Part shown: piece after piece, positions 2,772-29,466 of the stretch
Layout: the number at the start of each line of letters is the position of its first letter
Position numbering within the stretch: the stretch's first letter is position 1
From: a virus
Virus genome (UHGV): UHGV-0125347
Direction: 5' to 3' (one strand)
Length of the DNA: 41,471 nucleotides
The notes under the pieces: generated by a model
Seen by the model: only the letters and a program-made list of their open reading frames with translations
The model's database searches: none
What the model was told of the DNA's origin: nothing
Position numbers and translations under genes: made by a program

Positions 2772-3245
2772 TTATTGTAAATTTGTATTTAAAATCATGA
2801 CTGACAAATCATTAAACTCAAAAATTCTTCCTTTATAAAAATGGGTATCACCAAATTTTTGACGATAATAGGCGAGTACATTTTTTAGCGTTTCAACGTC
2901 TACCCCTAAAAATTCAGCGCACGTGTAATGATTACTGAATCCTGATTCTGAACACTTAATTAAATCATCTAAAGTGACTAATTGTTCTAAAGCATATTGT
3001 CTAGCTTTTAATTCTTGTTTGCGATTTTCTAAACAATCCTGGTTTAATATATCGCCAAACGAGGTATCATGGTGACCAAGTTCTTCAGCTAGCACATTTC
3101 TTTTTTCAACTAGACTCAACGATTTTTCAATATAAATTCTACCATCACGGTACAACCCATAGCATCCAGTATTTTGAAACAAATCTGTTTCAATAACTGG
3201 TGCTTTTTTCTGTACCTCTGACACCAACAGTTCATATTCGTTCAT
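2772..3245 (-). CDS. ImmA/IrrE-family (DUF955-like) metallopeptidase, partner of the repressor
   Basis: Contains AEELGHH (an HEXXH-like zinc-peptidase motif). Sits immediately downstream of the XRE repressor. The preferred start is ATG at 3245 (MNEYELL..) with an AGGAGT RBS directly after the repressor stop at 3262, rather than the track start at 3329. Confidence 0.72.
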   Translation of the reverse strand: MNEYELLVSEVQKKAPVIETDLFQNTGCYGLYRDGRIYIEKSLSLVEKRNVLAEELGHHDTSFGDILNQDCLENRKQELKARQYALEQLVTLDDLIKCSESGFSNHYTCAEFLGVDVETLKNVLAYYRQKFGDTHFYKGRIFEFNDLSVMILNTNLQ

Positions 3246-3261
3246 AAAATACTCCTGAAAA

Positions 3262-3792
3262 TTATTCTTTATCATCTGATTCATCAAAAAGATGTTTACA
3301 TTCTTTTTGCTTTCTATCATAATCAGCATCCACTTTATCTAGAAATTGATTAATGTTAAGTTTCTCTTCATCAGTAAATACTTTATCAGGATCTGGTGAA
3401 TGCGCAGCTAAAGTATCATATTTTTTCTTGTTAATGTTAACCACATTATTAGAAATTTTGTTTTGTTGTACTAATTGTTCTTTCGCAGTATCATATACAA
3501 TTTTTTGTCTTTCTGGTTCTAATTGATTATATGTTTCTTCTATAGAAGAAACAGGTTTAATATTTTTTTCAATCCCAAGCATATAGTCTGTAGATATATT
3601 AAATATTTCAGCAAGTAATTTAAGCTCTTTTCCTCTAGGGAGACTATCACCACTTTCCCATTTTGAGACAGTTGTATAATTTTTATATCCTAACATCTCT
3701 GCCAGTTCAGTTTGAGTTAGATTTTTTGTTTCACGTAAGTTTTTCAGTCTTTGAGCAAAGATAGTACCATGTGTATCTTTCATTAAGTTCAC
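3262..3792 (-). CDS. XRE-family HTH repressor (CI-like)
   Basis: HTH_3 signature LTQTELAEMLGYKNYTTVSKWESGDSLP. Divergent from a Cro-like gene and sits first in the int-proximal operon. RBS GCGAGGTGA. Confidence 0.85.
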   Translation of the reverse strand: MNLMKDTHGTIFAQRLKNLRETKNLTQTELAEMLGYKNYTTVSKWESGDSLPRGKELKLLAEIFNISTDYMLGIEKNIKPVSSIEETYNQLEPERQKIVYDTAKEQLVQQNKISNNVVNINKKKYDTLAAHSPDPDKVFTDEEKLNINQFLDKVDADYDRKQKECKHLFDESDDKE

Positions 3793-3955: not shown

Positions 3956-4156
3956 ATGGTTAATATTGCTGAATTAAGAATGAGACATGGAAAGATGTCT
4001 CAAAAAGAACTTGCCAAGGAGTTAGGAACAGAGCAAGCTAATATTAGTCGGTGGGAAAATAATCCATTGAGTATGAACTCTAAGAATCTCATCAAAGTAG
4101 CTTTATATTTCAATGTTTCTATTGATGATTTGTTAGGGGTAGATAAATCAGCTTAA
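3956..4156 (+). CDS. Cro-like XRE HTH protein
   Basis: 66 aa (MVNIAELRMRHGKMSQKELAKELGTEQANISRWEN). Strong RBS AAGGAGGTG. The track start at 3917 was rejected in favour of the ATG at 3956. Confidence 0.8.
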   Translation: MVNIAELRMRHGKMSQKELAKELGTEQANISRWENNPLSMNSKNLIKVALYFNVSIDDLLGVDKSA

Positions 4157-4396: not shown

Positions 4397-4585
4397 ATGG
4401 GGTATAGCGAAAGACAACAAAAACAAATTCTAAAGTGGATTCAAAATGATAGAAGGGCTATTCAAGAAGATCGTGAAGCCTTAAAAAAAGCTGACATGCT
4501 GACCAGTAGGAAAATGGAGCAATTTCAAAGTGAATTAGAATTCTTAAGGGAAATGGAGTTAGAGAATAAGGGGCAACGTCTATGA
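4397..4585 (+). CDS. Hypothetical coiled-coil protein
   Basis: 62 aa, charged and helical. Its stop overlaps the next start (ATGA). Confidence 0.5.
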   Translation: MGYSERQQKQILKWIQNDRRAIQEDREALKKADMLTSRKMEQFQSELEFLREMELENKGQRL

Positions 4586-4722
4586 GAGCTTTAACAATAA
4601 TAACCACGACAGTATTTAGTCTAATAGCATTAGTTGATATATTTACTGGTCATTTTATTCAAGCCGGAATGTTTGGTGTCATAGCATTATTTGCCAGCGT
4701 TGCTTACAGGAGGCGGTTGTGA
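4582..4722 (+). CDS. Small two-TM membrane protein (46 aa)
   Basis: MRALTIITTTVFSLIALVDIFTGHFIQAGMFGVIALFASVAYRRRL. ATG overlaps the upstream TGA. Under 60 aa, so absent from the ORF track. Confidence 0.4.
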   Translation: MRALTIITTTVFSLIALVDIFTGHFIQAGMFGVIALFASVAYRRRL

Positions 4723-25216: not shown

Positions 25217-26149
25217 ATGAAGAAAAAACAATTAATGAAAATGGATATTCAAATGTTTGCTCAAACATGGAATCCAGACAACGTCACTGTATTAGAGAAA
25301 AAAGATGGAACAATTCCAGATAAGTACAACACTTTAATTTTAAAAGATGTGATGGAAAATTCTAAGTTAATGCAGTTGGCTAAATATGAAGAAATGGACG
25401 GCAAAGAAAAGAAATTCGAATACTTTGCAGAAGGTCCTGGGGCGTACTGGGTTGGTGAAGGCGAAAAGATTAAAACGTCTAAACCTAAATGGTTAAACGT
25501 AACGATGACTGCGAAAAAAATTGGTGTTATTATCCCAGTTTCTCGAGAATATTTAACTTATAAGATGTCTGATTTCTTTACTCAAATGCAACCAAAAATC
25601 GCAGAAGCATTTTATAAGAAAATTGATGCGGCTACTATCCTTGATAAAGAAAATCCATTCTCTCAATCTATTGAAAAATCTGTCATTGCAGCTAGTAATG
25701 TAATTGAGGGCGACTTGACATATGACAACATTTTAGCATTAGAGGATTTGCTTGGAGAAGGTGAATACGATCCGAATGCTTTCATTTCTAATCGTAAGAA
25801 TCGTACAGTGTTACGTGAAGCAAGTAAAAAAATTGGTGACACAACTCAATTTATTTATGATCGTGTCAGCAATACTATTGATGGACTACCTGTAGCAGAT
25901 CTAAAATCTATGGATAAAGGAAACCTTTATACTGGTGATTTTGATTACTTGCGCTATGGTATCCCATTTAACATTAATTTCAAAATTTCAGAAGAAGCTC
26001 AATTATCTACTTTAACGAATGAAGACGGAACGCCTGTCAACTTGTACGAACAAGAATTGGTTGCTTTACGAGCTACAATGGATATTGGTTTCATGGTCAT
26101 CAAAGATGAAGCATTTGCTAAGATTCAACCAAAAGCTGCGGGGGAGTAA
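25217..26149 (+). CDS. Major capsid protein
   Basis: 310 aa with an N-terminal IQMFA motif. Position after the scaffold. RBS AGGAGG. Confidence 0.85.
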   Translation: MKKKQLMKMDIQMFAQTWNPDNVTVLEKKDGTIPDKYNTLILKDVMENSKLMQLAKYEEMDGKEKKFEYFAEGPGAYWVGEGEKIKTSKPKWLNVTMTAKKIGVIIPVSREYLTYKMSDFFTQMQPKIAEAFYKKIDAATILDKENPFSQSIEKSVIAASNVIEGDLTYDNILALEDLLGEGEYDPNAFISNRKNRTVLREASKKIGDTTQFIYDRVSNTIDGLPVADLKSMDKGNLYTGDFDYLRYGIPFNINFKISEEAQLSTLTNEDGTPVNLYEQELVALRATMDIGFMVIKDEAFAKIQPKAAGE

Positions 26150-26211
26150 CTAGCCCTGTTGTTGGAAAAGTAACACCGACAACAAATGGGGCGACAATCG
26201 AACTAACTTAG
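26140..26211 (+). other. -1-frame C-terminal extension of the capsid gene (VTSPVVGKVTPTTNGATIELT)
   Basis: The -1 frame is open from 26122 to TAG 26209-26211. A GGGGG run at 26140-26144 sits immediately before the capsid stop. The peptide is conserved with the tail-gene copy. Confidence 0.45.
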
Positions 26212-27242: not shown

Positions 27243-27628
27243 TTAAAACAAGAGATCAATCAATCTTCGATGAAGTGTATAAGAAGTGTCAATCACTGGG
27301 TTATGAAACCTACGATTACAAACCTATGAATGATGTAGGTTATCCATTTGTCGAATTAGAAGATACTCAGACACTGCACCAAGCCAACAAGACTGATATT
27401 AAAGGTTCAGTTACATTGAATCTATCTGTATGGGGATTGGCAAAAAAACGTAAACAAATATCGGATATGGCTTCAGCAATTTTTGCTGAGGCTCTATCTA
27501 TTTCTGAAACGGAAGGTTATTATTGGTCGCTCAATATCCAATCAAGCGGTATTCGGTTAGTAGATGACATTTCGACTAACACACCATTGAAGCGGGCAAT
27601 GATATCTTTAGAATTCAAAATACTATAG
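27239..27628 (+). CDS. Tail completion / terminator-like protein
   Basis: 129 aa. Position before the major tail protein. Confidence 0.55.
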
Positions 27629-27643
27629 AGAGAAGGAATATAA

Positions 27644-28174
27644 ATGGCTAATGAAGCAAAAGTAGCGGCTAAAGGTATTGATATTATTTTACTTTTCCGT
27701 TTGTTAAAAAAATCAAAAGAGGAAGCAGCATGGAAATTAGCTTTCCAGACAGAACATGAAAATACAAAGACAAAAGATAGTGACTCCGTGGCCACTAAAG
27801 ATGGTCCGATTCGCATCCCAGGGTCATTAGAAATTGATTTTTCGGCAACATCTATTTTATCAGTTGGTGATCCATATGTTGACCAGCTAGAAGAGGCTTT
27901 AGACAATGACGATATTATTGAAATCTGGGAAATCAACAAAGCAGAAAAAGGCACAGGAGATAATGCTGACAAATACAAGGCAACCTATTACCAAGGATAT
28001 GTAACATCATTTGGCAAATCACCTAATGCTGAAGACACCGTAGAAGTTTCATTAGAATTTGGTATCAATGGTAAAGGTGCAAAAGGATTTGCGACATTAA
28101 CTGCTGATCAAGAAGAAGTAGTTCAATATGTCTTCAAAGATACGACTATTGAAACAGCTGATCCGGGAAAGTAG
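27644..28174 (+). CDS. Major tail protein
   Basis: 176 aa with a strong RBS, upstream of the chaperone and tape-measure genes. Ends at the slippery GGGAAAG followed by TAG. Confidence 0.8.
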   Translation: MANEAKVAAKGIDIILLFRLLKKSKEEAAWKLAFQTEHENTKTKDSDSVATKDGPIRIPGSLEIDFSATSILSVGDPYVDQLEEALDNDDIIEIWEINKAEKGTGDNADKYKATYYQGYVTSFGKSPNAEDTVEVSLEFGINGKGAKGFATLTADQEEVVQYVFKDTTIETADPGK

Positions 28175-28236
28175 ATAGCCCTTCTGTGGGAAGTGTAACT
28201 CCTACAGTCGATGGGGCTTCTATTGAATTAAGCTAA
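28165..28236 (+). other. -1-frame extension of the major tail gene (VDSPSVGSVTPTVDGASIELS), in frame with the downstream Ig ORF
   Basis: G GGA AAG heptamer at 28165-28171 immediately followed by the 0-frame TAG. The -1 frame is open from 28162 to TAA 28234-28236. Confidence 0.5.
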
Positions 28237-28251
28237 GAAAGGAAAATAAAT

Positions 28252-28710
28252 ATGGTGGATACTTTTAAAATTTATAAAGGCCAAACCGAAGTTGTTTCCG
28301 GCCAATCACCTTTAACTATAACAGGAATGGAACCTAACACCTCAGTGCCGGCTGGTGAGTACCAAGTAACTCGTGTTGTTAATGGAAAAGAATCAGAGCG
28401 AGTAGATATTCCAGCTTTTAAAACTTTGTCTATTGCTGTAACTGGCTTAGAGTTTTCTCCTAAAACGTCCACAGCAGATGCGGGTACTGCAGGTAGCCGA
28501 CAAATCACAGCAACTGTTTTACCTGAAAATGCAACCAACAAGAAGGTAAACTATGATATTTCACCTGTAACAGAAGGTCTTGCTGTCTCTGAAACAGGAA
28601 ATATTACTTGGACAGAAGCGGTACCGGCTGGTGTTTATACCACAACAGGAACAACAGAGGATGGTAAAAAAACAGCTCAACACACCTTAACATTGAATAA
28701 TCAAGCTTAA
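28252..28710 (+). CDS. Ig-like decoration protein (FN3-like + Big_2 domains)
   Basis: FN3-like SPLTITGMEPNTSVPAGEYQVTRVVNGKES and Big_2-like ITATVLPENATNKKVNYDISP. Confidence 0.75.
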   Translation: MVDTFKIYKGQTEVVSGQSPLTITGMEPNTSVPAGEYQVTRVVNGKESERVDIPAFKTLSIAVTGLEFSPKTSTADAGTAGSRQITATVLPENATNKKVNYDISPVTEGLAVSETGNITWTEAVPAGVYTTTGTTEDGKKTAQHTLTLNNQA

Positions 28711-28723
28711 AATATAAATTTAG

Positions 28724-28752
28724 AGGGCAGCTTAGCGGCTGTCCTTTTCTTA
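28724..28752 (+). terminator. Hairpin plus T-run after the tail/Ig genes
   Basis: AGGGCAGC-ttagcg-GCTGTCCT followed by TTTCTTA. Confidence 0.4.
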
Positions 28753-28765
28753 TGGAGGAAAAGGC

Positions 28766-29116
28766 ATGCAAATCGAAATTAAAGGAAAAAAATATAACTG
28801 TATTTTTGGAGTCAAGTTTATTCGTGAATTGGATAAGCAGCATGGGGTAGTTCGCAATGATGTAAATCTTGGGATGGGACTAACAACATTATTACCGCAG
28901 CTAGTAAGTGGAAATATCGTTGTTTTATCTGATGTACTTTACACAGCTACCATTACGGAAAAAAGTAGACCTTCTAAGGATGAAGTAGATGAGTTTGTTG
29001 AAACTGTTGATGATATTGAGGCGTTATTTGATGAAACGTTGAAAAACTTAGAAGAAAGCAATGCGGGAAAGTTAACGGTCAGAAATTTCAAGAAAGCTCT
29101 GATGGAGAACAAGTAA
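28766..29116 (+). CDS. Tail assembly chaperone (gpG-like)
   Basis: 116 aa, directly upstream of the tape measure. Contains GGGAAAG at 29065-29071. Confidence 0.75.
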   Translation: MQIEIKGKKYNCIFGVKFIRELDKQHGVVRNDVNLGMGLTTLLPQLVSGNIVVLSDVLYTATITEKSRPSKDEVDEFVETVDDIEALFDETLKNLEESNAGKLTVRNFKKALMENK

Positions 29117-29466
29117 GAGAGGAACTAACCTCAGCTGAAGCTTATGAAAATATTCTTATTAATTGTTTTCGTTACCTAGAAATTACTGACTTATCAGAAA
29201 TTGAACGAATGACTTTGTATGAATATGAAGTTAGGCTATTGGCGTTTCAGTTAAAAAGACTTGACCATGAAAGAGACCTCTATCTTCAATCTTGGCTAAA
29301 TAACCAAATTAAGGCGACTAAAGGTAAAAAATCTGAACCTTATTATAAGGAATTCAATAAGTTTTTCAATTATGAAGAACGAGAGAAGCTTATTTTGGGT
29401 AAATCATTAATTGATGAAAAAGTTGATATAGGAGCAATTGATTTATTAAGAAAAGCAAATAAGTAG
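29071..29466 (+). CDS. gpT-like portion of the G-T chaperone fusion (via -1 PRF)
   Basis: The -1 frame is open from 29035 through 29466, contiguous with the annotated 29209 ORF. Canonical slippery site G GGA AAG at 29065-29071. Confidence 0.65.
   Translation, partial: VNGQKFQESSDGEQVREELTSAEAYENILINCFRYLEITDLSEIERMTLYEYEVRLLAFQLKRLDHERDLYLQSWLNNQIKATKGKKSEPYYKEFNKFFNYEEREKLILGKSLIDEKVDIGAIDLLRKANK

Follow-up and report, generated by a model that had tools for sequence, protein, structure and literature searches.

The virus genome UHGV-0125347, whose whole stretch of 41,471 nucleotides (nt) is called the window below, raises the question of whether the 3' end of its major tail (tube) protein (MTP) gene and the reading frame behind it encode one polypeptide or two. 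The tail gene has a -1-frame extension of 21 amino acids (aa) that closes with a TAA at 28234, and five sense codons (ERKIN) separate this stop from the ATG of a 152-aa open reading frame (ORF) with immunoglobulin (Ig)-like domains. The ATG lies 18 nt (6 codons) past the first base of the TAA and is therefore in the same frame, with only that stop in between. An initial annotation of the DNA had proposed either that the stop is bypassed at low frequency or that a decoration module was recently split, with the Ig protein now made separately and possibly attached via the extension. All of its coordinates were correct when re-read from the sequence and the ORF list, including the in-phase G_GGA_AAG heptamer at which the extension is entered. 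The source phage is a phiEf11-like Enterococcus faecalis siphophage, and positions 27600-28800 were 95-97% identical to IME197, EFC-1, and phiEf11. Related loci are designated by L-numbers (L001, phiEf11; L002, IME197; L003, vB_ElaS_B1578; L106, phi12; L107, EFAP-1; L132, vB_EfaS-271).

Comparison with relatives showed, at the level of homology, that the 21-aa peptide (hereafter the tag) and the start of the Ig ORF correspond to two parts of one FN3 domain, with strands A-B in the tag and strand C onward in the ORF. The tag of L098 and L099 has the sequence PKQPVNLEASTTTDTVTLTWD up to its stop, and their ORF begins MVTYNVYRN. The L099 ORF alone matched the Pfam fn3 profile over positions 32-83 with 34.2 bits, and with the tag prepended the match extended over positions 2-83 with 49.0 bits; for L098, the score rose from 27.5 to 31.1 bits. 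Both ORFs passed the fn3 cut-off by themselves, but only over positions 32-83. The tag corresponds to profile positions of about 2-22, and no complete Ig-like domain lies in the extension. Furthermore, the fused L099 tag and ORF aligned in one tblastn piece (query 3-79) with SPP1 gene 17.1* at 42.7% identity (E 7e-8) and with SPP1-like phages at 46-49% identity (E about 1e-13), and SPP1 reads uninterrupted NAPQNLTYTATTDSVTVKWDAVEGADSYNVYRG across the split position. The Enterococcus phage EC99P1 shares the +1 cassette CCC_TAA_TGC_NCC_CCA with SPP1, but carries it behind the capsid gene. It reads NAPQNLTSSDVTATNVTLTWE up to the stop, followed by ERGK (encoded over the Shine-Dalgarno (SD) sequence), a GTG start, ATTYNVYKG, and then Big_2. 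Judging by these alignments, the stop, SD sequence, and start codon take the place of the FN3 B-C loop. One partner is an Ig-like fold without some of its strands, and the other partner carries exactly those strands. The proposed descent from a frameshift-appended Ig/FN3 decoration is supported by the existence of unsplit homologues such as SPP1 gp17.1*. The 21 aa had been regarded as a linker, whereas they align with FN3 strands A-B.

The window ORF was 49-52% identical to the L098/L099 branch, and the window tail tag matched the tags of EC99P1, L098, and L099 by position and pattern. The FN3 assignment for the window lineage was made because of this ORF homology, the identical start point, and the aligned tag pattern. 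When the Ig ORF was modelled alone with AlphaFold2 (AF2), the predicted local distance difference test (pLDDT) score was 94.9, with values >90 in the truncated FN3, and strands C, C', F, and G were seen in the N-terminal domain (N-domain). The segment SPLTITG (strand E), which is the most conserved motif of the family, was extended and had no pairing partner in the AF2 models, as expected if strand B is missing. For the second domain, the Big_2 score of the window ORF was 16.7 bits against a Pfam cut-off of 22.8 bits. The Ig family profile matched the Big_2 domain of 7quz in the PDB (E 4e-15), and Foldseek with the AF2 Ig model found the same domain with a root-mean-square deviation of 1.8 A, E 3e-7, and 37% identity, together with Ig domains of the phi29 capsid, T5 pb6, and lambda gpV; this Foldseek result is dominated by the Big_2 half and is silent on the N-domain. 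When PDB sequences were searched, phi12p38 and the family profile each hit Big_2 only, and no solved structure with the N-domain was found. Of the two domain labels first given, Big_2 was thus supported by the family profile and by structure, and FN3 needed correction, as only its C-terminal two-thirds are present.

The capsid gene of the window also ends in a -1 peptide similar to that of the tail gene, and no Ig module lies behind it, as had been noted at the outset. A hidden Markov model (HMM) of the tag peptide gave two matches above threshold in the window. The capsid and tail tags of IME197 (L002), which are identical to those of this phage, scored 27.7 and 27.9 bits, respectively. Exactly two copies were found in nearly every related locus with sufficient flank, one following a capsid-size ORF and one following a tail-tube-size ORF. 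The capsid proteins (PF05065 and PF25209) and tail-tube proteins (PF06199 and PF04630) that bear the tag belong to unrelated families. The truncated-FN3 ORF occurred once per genome, directly after the capsid tag or the tail tag. In the reverse direction, searching from the recoding cassette recovered the ORF in 16/21 loci, the other 5 being incomplete or ambiguous, and a related tail tube without an Ig ORF (vB_ElaS_B1578, L003) had no tag. For instance, Staphylococcus aureus phi12 carries TTA_CCC_AGC_TAA on both genes, with the tags AKPQKVNVTAKAKSAVISAE and ANPQNVEVAVNSKSATVSAE, each followed by a stop, and the same arrangement was present in Brochothrix BtpYZU02 and Enterococcus EFAP-1 and vB_EfaS-271. 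The truncated N-domain matched 628 phage records, of which 503 were from Staphylococcus. The split is old and widespread rather than recent, being shared by hundreds of phages of Enterococcus, Staphylococcus, Bacillaceae, Brochothrix, and Lactobacillus.

The tag is reached by different routes. The -1 recoding sites were G_GGG_GAG_TAA (commonest), G_GGA_AAG, C_CCA_AAA, and A_AAA_AAA/G, and the +1 sites were CCC_TAA, CCC_TAG, and CCC_AGY; in phiEf11, L040, and L052, the tail tag is in frame and requires no recoding. The tail-tube heptamer G_GGA_AAG is identical to the lambda G/GT site, and the junction peptide predicted for the -1 product of the tail gene would contain TADPGKVDSPSVGSVTPTVDGASIELS. 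In phiEf11, the tail gene runs GAT CCA GAA AAA GTA GAT into the tag, and the capsid gene is another allele with an A_AAA_AAA site and the similar tag IEAPKVESVIPTTDGASIVLS. The extension is a genuine, selected coding element: relatives with an in-frame tag or a different allele keep the tag peptide, and the -1 frames are conserved as protein in relatives. Every tail-tube subunit would bear the tag in phiEf11, L040, and L052, because the tag is in frame there. Unless the in-frame indels are sequencing errors, the tail thus tolerates a tag on all of its tube subunits. The in-frame position of the tail tag goes back to two distinct indels (CCAGAAAAAGTA and CACGGGAAAGTA, against CCGGGAAAGTAG). As for the capsid site, GGGGGAGTAA (N.G_GGG_GAG_TAA) precedes the tag in >20 other lineages, on capsid and tail genes alike, including L005, L006, L007, L008, L010, L013, L020, L021, L088, L092, L094, L095, and L101. 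G_GGG_GAG does not follow the X_XXY_YYZ pattern and would need re-pairing of tRNA-Glu from GAG to GGA, or a single P-site slip on GGG beside the stop.

Hairpins were predicted 6-8 nt downstream of both shift sites of the window, and they are built from the tag's own codons. Explicit pair counting in 33 cassettes showed that the core pairs were retained in 24-33 of them. Paired cells amounted to 62% in the real alignment vs 33-51% in slid controls, and columns 27 and 42 covaried (UA 10/CG 7). Synonymous positions were also conserved, with GGG as almost the sole Gly codon and C nearly always directly preceding the Pro codon. RNAalifold returned no consensus structure for the 33 cassettes, and the +3 slid control was as high on covariation as the real hairpin alignment. 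Because of this null result and the equal control, the support for the hairpins is only moderate. The tail hairpin is a probable frameshift stimulator.

From these results, the following mechanism can be proposed. A fraction of the ribosomes would shift -1 at G_GGA_AAG on the tail gene and at G_GGG_GAG on the capsid gene, helped by the hairpin downstream, and the 21-aa tag would thereby be added to capsid and tail subunits. The 152-aa ORF would be translated separately, beginning at strand C and continuing into the Big_2 domain. The free protein would be unable to complete its own FN3 sandwich and could dock non-covalently on the tagged subunits, the A-B hairpin of the tag serving as the missing sheet and its strand B pairing with the conserved E-strand. 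Such docking on tagged capsid and tail subunits by FN3 completion is what we consider probable, and of the possibilities first raised, a separately made Ig protein attached via the peptide is the best supported. A single gene would decorate head and tail, with occupancy set by frameshift efficiency. The stop of the tag and the start codon of the free protein (the 'catcher') are 1-40 nt apart, so ribosomes that have shifted may also be passed straight on to the catcher ORF, and tag and catcher output would then be coupled. As has been proposed for other Ig-like domains in phages, the displayed Big_2 domain would presumably adhere weakly to carbohydrates or surfaces. With slightly less assurance, it can be suggested that hundreds of Firmicutes phages use a natural tag/catcher pair in which FN3 is split at the B-C loop, interchangeable payloads ride on the free strand C-G protein, the tags stand on a tunable fraction of capsid and tail-tube subunits, and attachment takes place during or after assembly. 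Triavirus prophages of S. aureus would be among the users, as would therapeutic Efquatrovirus phages of E. faecalis.

The most serious alternative is that the tag and the Ig protein are independent of each other. The tag would then be a relic, a by-product of the frameshift element, or a contact with neighbouring subunits, and the Ig protein would bind otherwise or be non-structural. Several observations point that way or weigh against FN3 completion. In the AF2 model of the conceptual fusion, the tag was disordered (pLDDT about 43) and undocked while the truncated domain was confident without it, which is weak but real counter-evidence given that the multiple sequence alignment of the fusion had no tag coverage. 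A stimulator superimposed on the peptide code explains part of the Pro/Gly conservation of the tag. A Pfam scan of the window ORF and of the fusion gave no fn3 match at E<=10 and only RGI_lyase over 34-80, and prepending the tag brought no gain over the ORF alone. The fused tag and N-domain profile (27 lineages) found nothing significant among PDB sequences, and the FN3 assignment of the window lineage rests on the branch of L098, L099, and EC99P1. The published phiEf11 gel covered 27-85 kDa only, so a 16-kDa protein was outside its range (PMC5221750). Expression of the payload-less 7-kDa protein of vB_EfaS-271 is supported by its detection by mass spectrometry (MS) with 94% coverage in purified lysate, but that sample also contained non-structural proteins (PMC7503890).

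Conservation statistics across lineages favour FN3 completion. Pairwise identity of the tag was 0.50-0.51, compared with 0.22-0.27 in the 21 aa that precede the shift, divergence of the tag followed that of the N-domain (Spearman 0.71 for tail and 0.39 for capsid) more than that of the host protein (0.28), and tags within one genome were more alike than tags between genomes to a degree that 0/5000 permutations reached, all of these values ignoring phylogenetic kinship, which counts among the weaknesses just listed. The last 120 aa of the host proteins were 34-45% identical. Independence is nevertheless unlikely. The tag and the truncated ORF co-occur in both search directions, and the tag is kept in frame in phiEf11, L040, and L052, where no stimulator is needed. 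Moreover, it is conserved on non-homologous capsid and tail proteins, through three recoding mechanisms and in unrelated nucleotide contexts. Tag and ORF make up one FN3 by homology, and, from what the FN3 fold implies, a domain from which two strands of a three-stranded sheet are missing would be an improbable final state.

The second alternative is that suggested by the colinearity itself, namely read-through of the TAA at 28234-28236, or a sense codon at this place in relatives, giving a covalent MTP-tag-FN3-Big_2 fusion. One frame with a single stop was found in the window and also in the phiEf11 group, L015, L016/L102, L020, BtpYZU02, and EC99P1, and the read-through product would be a topologically normal FN3. 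To place this arrangement, 102 related loci were collected and their upstream regions translated, and 49 non-redundant junctions were compared. The tag upstream of the Ig ORF was always present and always closed by a stop. Relative to the start codon, it lay in frame 0, +1, and +2 in 20, 12, and 17 of the 49 junctions, one of the 17 being a regex false positive (about 48 real junctions). The frame 0 count is inflated because near-identical phiEf11-like phages are included, and by distinct spacer sequence the ratio 0:+1:+2 was about 6:12:8. The prior for a shared frame is 1/3, and frame 0 is not enriched among relatives. Each junction had its own SD sequence and start codon 1-40 nt past the tag stop. 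The tag stops were TAA or TAG in 48/49 junctions, the single TGA (L008) was not colinear, and no stop type was favoured at colinear junctions.

The relatives did not behave as the read-through proposal had predicted. The expected sense codon was absent, as all close relatives keep the TAA, and the Ig ORF of relatives lies in other frames or, in many lineages, comes behind the capsid gene instead. The Ig ORF family is free-standing (about 150-165 aa, or about 250 aa in members with a second Big_2), and its protein-database homologues all start M..FKIYKG, none running further upstream. In addition, the capsid tag has no ORF behind it, and the phiEf11 MTP was reported at 28-30 kDa, not at about 38 kDa (PMC5221750). 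Because frames 0, +1, and +2 are mixed and every Ig ORF comes with an SD and a start of its own, read-through is unsupported. The comparison showed it to be no feature of the family, and for this phage it is very improbable. The colinearity is a coincidence, a chance frame relation left by an ancestral continuous FN3.

Ribosomal bypassing (hopping), or another recoding event independent of frame, would join tag and ORF covalently in all lineages and would explain their adjacency regardless of frame, with the tag stop so close to the start codon. It is hardly credible, as the window lacks matched take-off and landing codons (AGC precedes the stop, and neither AGC nor AGU lies near the ATG), the spacers differ in length and sequence, the conserved strong SDs and canonical starts are not needed for bypassing, and the second tag of each genome has no ORF downstream. 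FN3 domains are not known to form isopeptide-type bonds, which counts against the last alternative, complementation that is then locked covalently as in SpyTag/SpyCatcher. An Ig-like fold split into peptide and remainder and the anomalous gel mobility of MTP and the major capsid protein (MCP) would suit such a lock (PMC5221750), but it is extremely doubtful, as the reported shifts of +3 to +8 kDa are unlike a 16-kDa adduct, and no Lys/Asp/Glu triad was noticed, although none was searched for.

The capsid extension has been discussed before. For phiEf11, a -1 shift on the capsid gene and a 21-aa extension were proposed to account for two MCP bands of 38 and 41 kDa (Stevens 2016, PMC5221750). 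The role of the extension was not explained, and no link was drawn to the tail gene or to ORF16 (PMC5221750). The extension peptide was not seen in the virion MS of that study (PMC5221750). The phiEf11 MTP, of 21.5 kDa with its in-frame tag, migrated at 28-30 kDa, and the upper MCP band lay 3-4 kDa above the lower, compared with 2.1 kDa predicted for the tag (PMC5221750). These mobilities are explained neither by a split FN3 nor by a 16-kDa covalent adduct.

The truncated N-domain behaves as an adaptor module, joined to one Big_2 domain, to two of them, to G5, to PF20622, or to no payload at all. In the protein P0119 (180 aa), an N-domain about 95% identical to that of the window over the aligned third of the query is joined to PF20622; its 57 N-terminal residues differ from those of the window at about four positions. 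This suggests payload swapping on a constant adaptor. In Efquatrovirus-type phages, an ORF of 66-72 aa after the capsid gene consists of the truncated FN3 without payload. An N-domain 40-48% identical was also found in Staphylococcus myoviruses of 130-145 kb (such as SA11, Remus, phiIBB-SEP1, and Twillingate), where the genes go under different annotations (major tail, minor tail, or hydrolase-domain protein). In phi12 (L106), the 359 nt after the capsid gene (2248-2607) carry no annotated gene, and the +1 tag accounts for only about the first 60 nt of them.

Hundreds of phage records in GenBank/RefSeq call the small Ig/FN3 ORF a 'major tail protein', and this label is a propagated mis-annotation. 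As a result of it, phiEf11, IME197, and EFC-1 seem to own two major tail proteins. The features of the window and the coordinates in relatives are collected in Table 1.

Table 1. Features of the window and of selected related loci (MFE, minimum free energy)
Feature	Position	Strand	Description
Major capsid protein gene	25217..26149	+	310 aa, 0 frame; Pfam Phage_capsid PF05065, E 1.9e-31; 3' end GCG GGG GAG TAA, read from sequence
Capsid recoding site, G_GGG_GAG then TAA	26140..26149 (heptamer 26140-46)	+	non-canonical -1 site; sequence
Capsid -1-frame tag, VTSPVVGKVTPTTNGATIELT then stop	26146..26211	+	assigned to FN3 strands A-B; sequence
Capsid hairpin	26153..26192	+	AGCCC...GGGGC and inner stem GUUGUUGG/CCGACAAC; MFE -24.1 kcal/mol, z -1.55
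Major tail (tube) protein gene	27644..28174	+	176 aa, 0 frame; Pfam Phage_tail_2 PF06199, E 7e-18; 3' end GAT CCG GGA AAG TAG, TAG at 28172-74
Slippery heptamer G_GGA_AAG	28165..28171	+	X_XXY_YYZ phase; sequence
Tail -1-frame tag, VDSPSVGSVTPTVDGASIELS then stop	28171..28236	+	21 aa, assigned to FN3 strands A-B; starts GTA (28171), ends AGC TAA, TAA at 28234-36
Tail hairpin	28177..28218	+	6 nt 3' of slippery site; AGCCCU/GGGGCU and CUGUGGGA/UCCUACAG; MFE -24.8 kcal/mol, z -2.0
Shine-Dalgarno of Ig ORF, AAAGGAAA	28238..28245	+	within the 15-nt spacer replacing the FN3 B-C loop; sequence
Decoration-protein (Ig) ORF	28252..28710	+	152 aa, about 16 kDa; phiEf11 ORF16 homologue
Truncated FN3, strands C-G only	28252..28425	+	aa 1-58 of Ig ORF; proposed 'catcher'; homologues, profile, AF2
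Big_2 Ig-like display domain	28435..28683	+	aa 62-144 of Ig ORF; profile and structure
In-frame tail tag, L001 (phiEf11)	4060-4138
In-frame tail tag, L040
In-frame tail tag, L052	5905-5985
Payload-less ORF, EFAP-1 (L107)	4501-4719		annotated 'major tail protein'
Payload-less ORF, vB_EfaS-271 (L132)	3201-3401		annotated 'major tail protein'

A terminator scan downstream of the Ig ORF found none. The tail assembly chaperone (TAC) gene (28766-29116, Pfam Phage_TAC_12) contains a second in-phase G_GGA_AAG at 29065-29071. Its -1 frame is open over 29071-29466 and enters the ORF at 29209-29466. This is the classical chaperone shift of the lambda G/GT type, using the same heptamer as the tail-tube tag. 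Among phiEf11-like phages, the tail tube and the Ig ORF are shared, and the capsid occurs as two alleles, one of 342 aa with A_AAA_AAA and one of 310 aa with G_GGG_GAG. The two differ in the tag variant that they carry (L001, L028, L030, L036, and L052 for the former; the window, L002, and L026 for the latter). The capsid and its tag are exchanged as a mosaic unit among these phages. Furthermore, in L103, L104, and L105, a window-like capsid ending in KDEAFGKIQPAGE and a stop passes by a -1 shift at G_GGG_GAG into GGVTIPATGVTVSPKTS and then Big_2 (at about 5960-6280 in L103). This extension contains no FN3 and no split, and it represents the classical covalent arrangement in a close relative.

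Ig-like 'promiscuous' domains on phage capsid and tail proteins were reportedly described by Fraser et al. in 2006. Frameshift-appended Ig/FN3 domains on both kinds of protein are well known (PMC5009743, PMC8718954), and such Ig domains are indifferent to -1, +1, or in-frame attachment (PMC5009743). Ig-like frameshift extensions have so far been described as covalent, whole-domain additions. A literature search for a split FN3 or trans strand completion in phage decoration found none, which does not show that such work is unpublished, and a 2026 paper on Efquatrovirus evolution makes no mention of frameshifting. If the split is functional, decoration would be attached by domain completion instead of surface recognition, a mode previously unrecognised, and the puzzling short extensions (about 20 aa) that many phages have on capsid and tail proteins alike would be explained. 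It would also offer a ready-made, naturally tuned peptide-tag display for engineering therapeutic Enterococcus and Staphylococcus phages. The analysis also corrects a widespread mis-annotation in hundreds of GenBank records.

Among known systems, SPP1 gp17.1* has the homologous FN3, recoding at the 3' end of the tube gene, and modification of only a fraction of the subunits. In SPP1, however, the whole FN3 is one polypeptide, added by a +1 shift at CCC_TAA, and on the tail only, whereas in this phage a stop, SD, and start split the FN3 in the B-C loop, the second part has an additional Big_2 domain, and the first part is found on the capsid as well as on the tail. Similarly, the capsid and tail genes of Lactobacillus phage A2 (C_CCA_AAA, -1) and of Listeria PSA, A118, and A500 (CCC_N, +1 or -1) are recoded at the 3' end, and motifs of these types (C_CCA_AAA and CCC_TAA/CCC_AGN) recur in relatives of the present phage. 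The extensions of A2 and the Listeria phages have been reported to be whole domains in covalent linkage (85 aa in A2), while here they are 20-24 aa long and would be completed in trans.

T4 Hoc and T5 pb10 resemble the proposed system in that a protein translated on its own, with one or more Ig-like display domains and a dedicated anchoring module, attaches to the virion once assembled. For Hoc and pb10, it is the folded surface of the capsid that is recognised, whereas the anchor proposed here would be an incomplete domain that is completed by its target peptide. Unlike in those two systems, the number of sites would be set by recoding, and head and tail would share one ligand. In addition, chaperone-usher pili, SpyTag/SpyCatcher, and split FN3 or GFP are comparable in that a fold lacking a strand, Ig-like in the pili, is completed by another polypeptide, which makes the association very stable. 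Pilins lack the C-terminal strand G, while the N-terminal strands A-B would be missing here, and neither a chaperone nor a covalent bond is implied. The likeness to these systems is an analogy and not homology.

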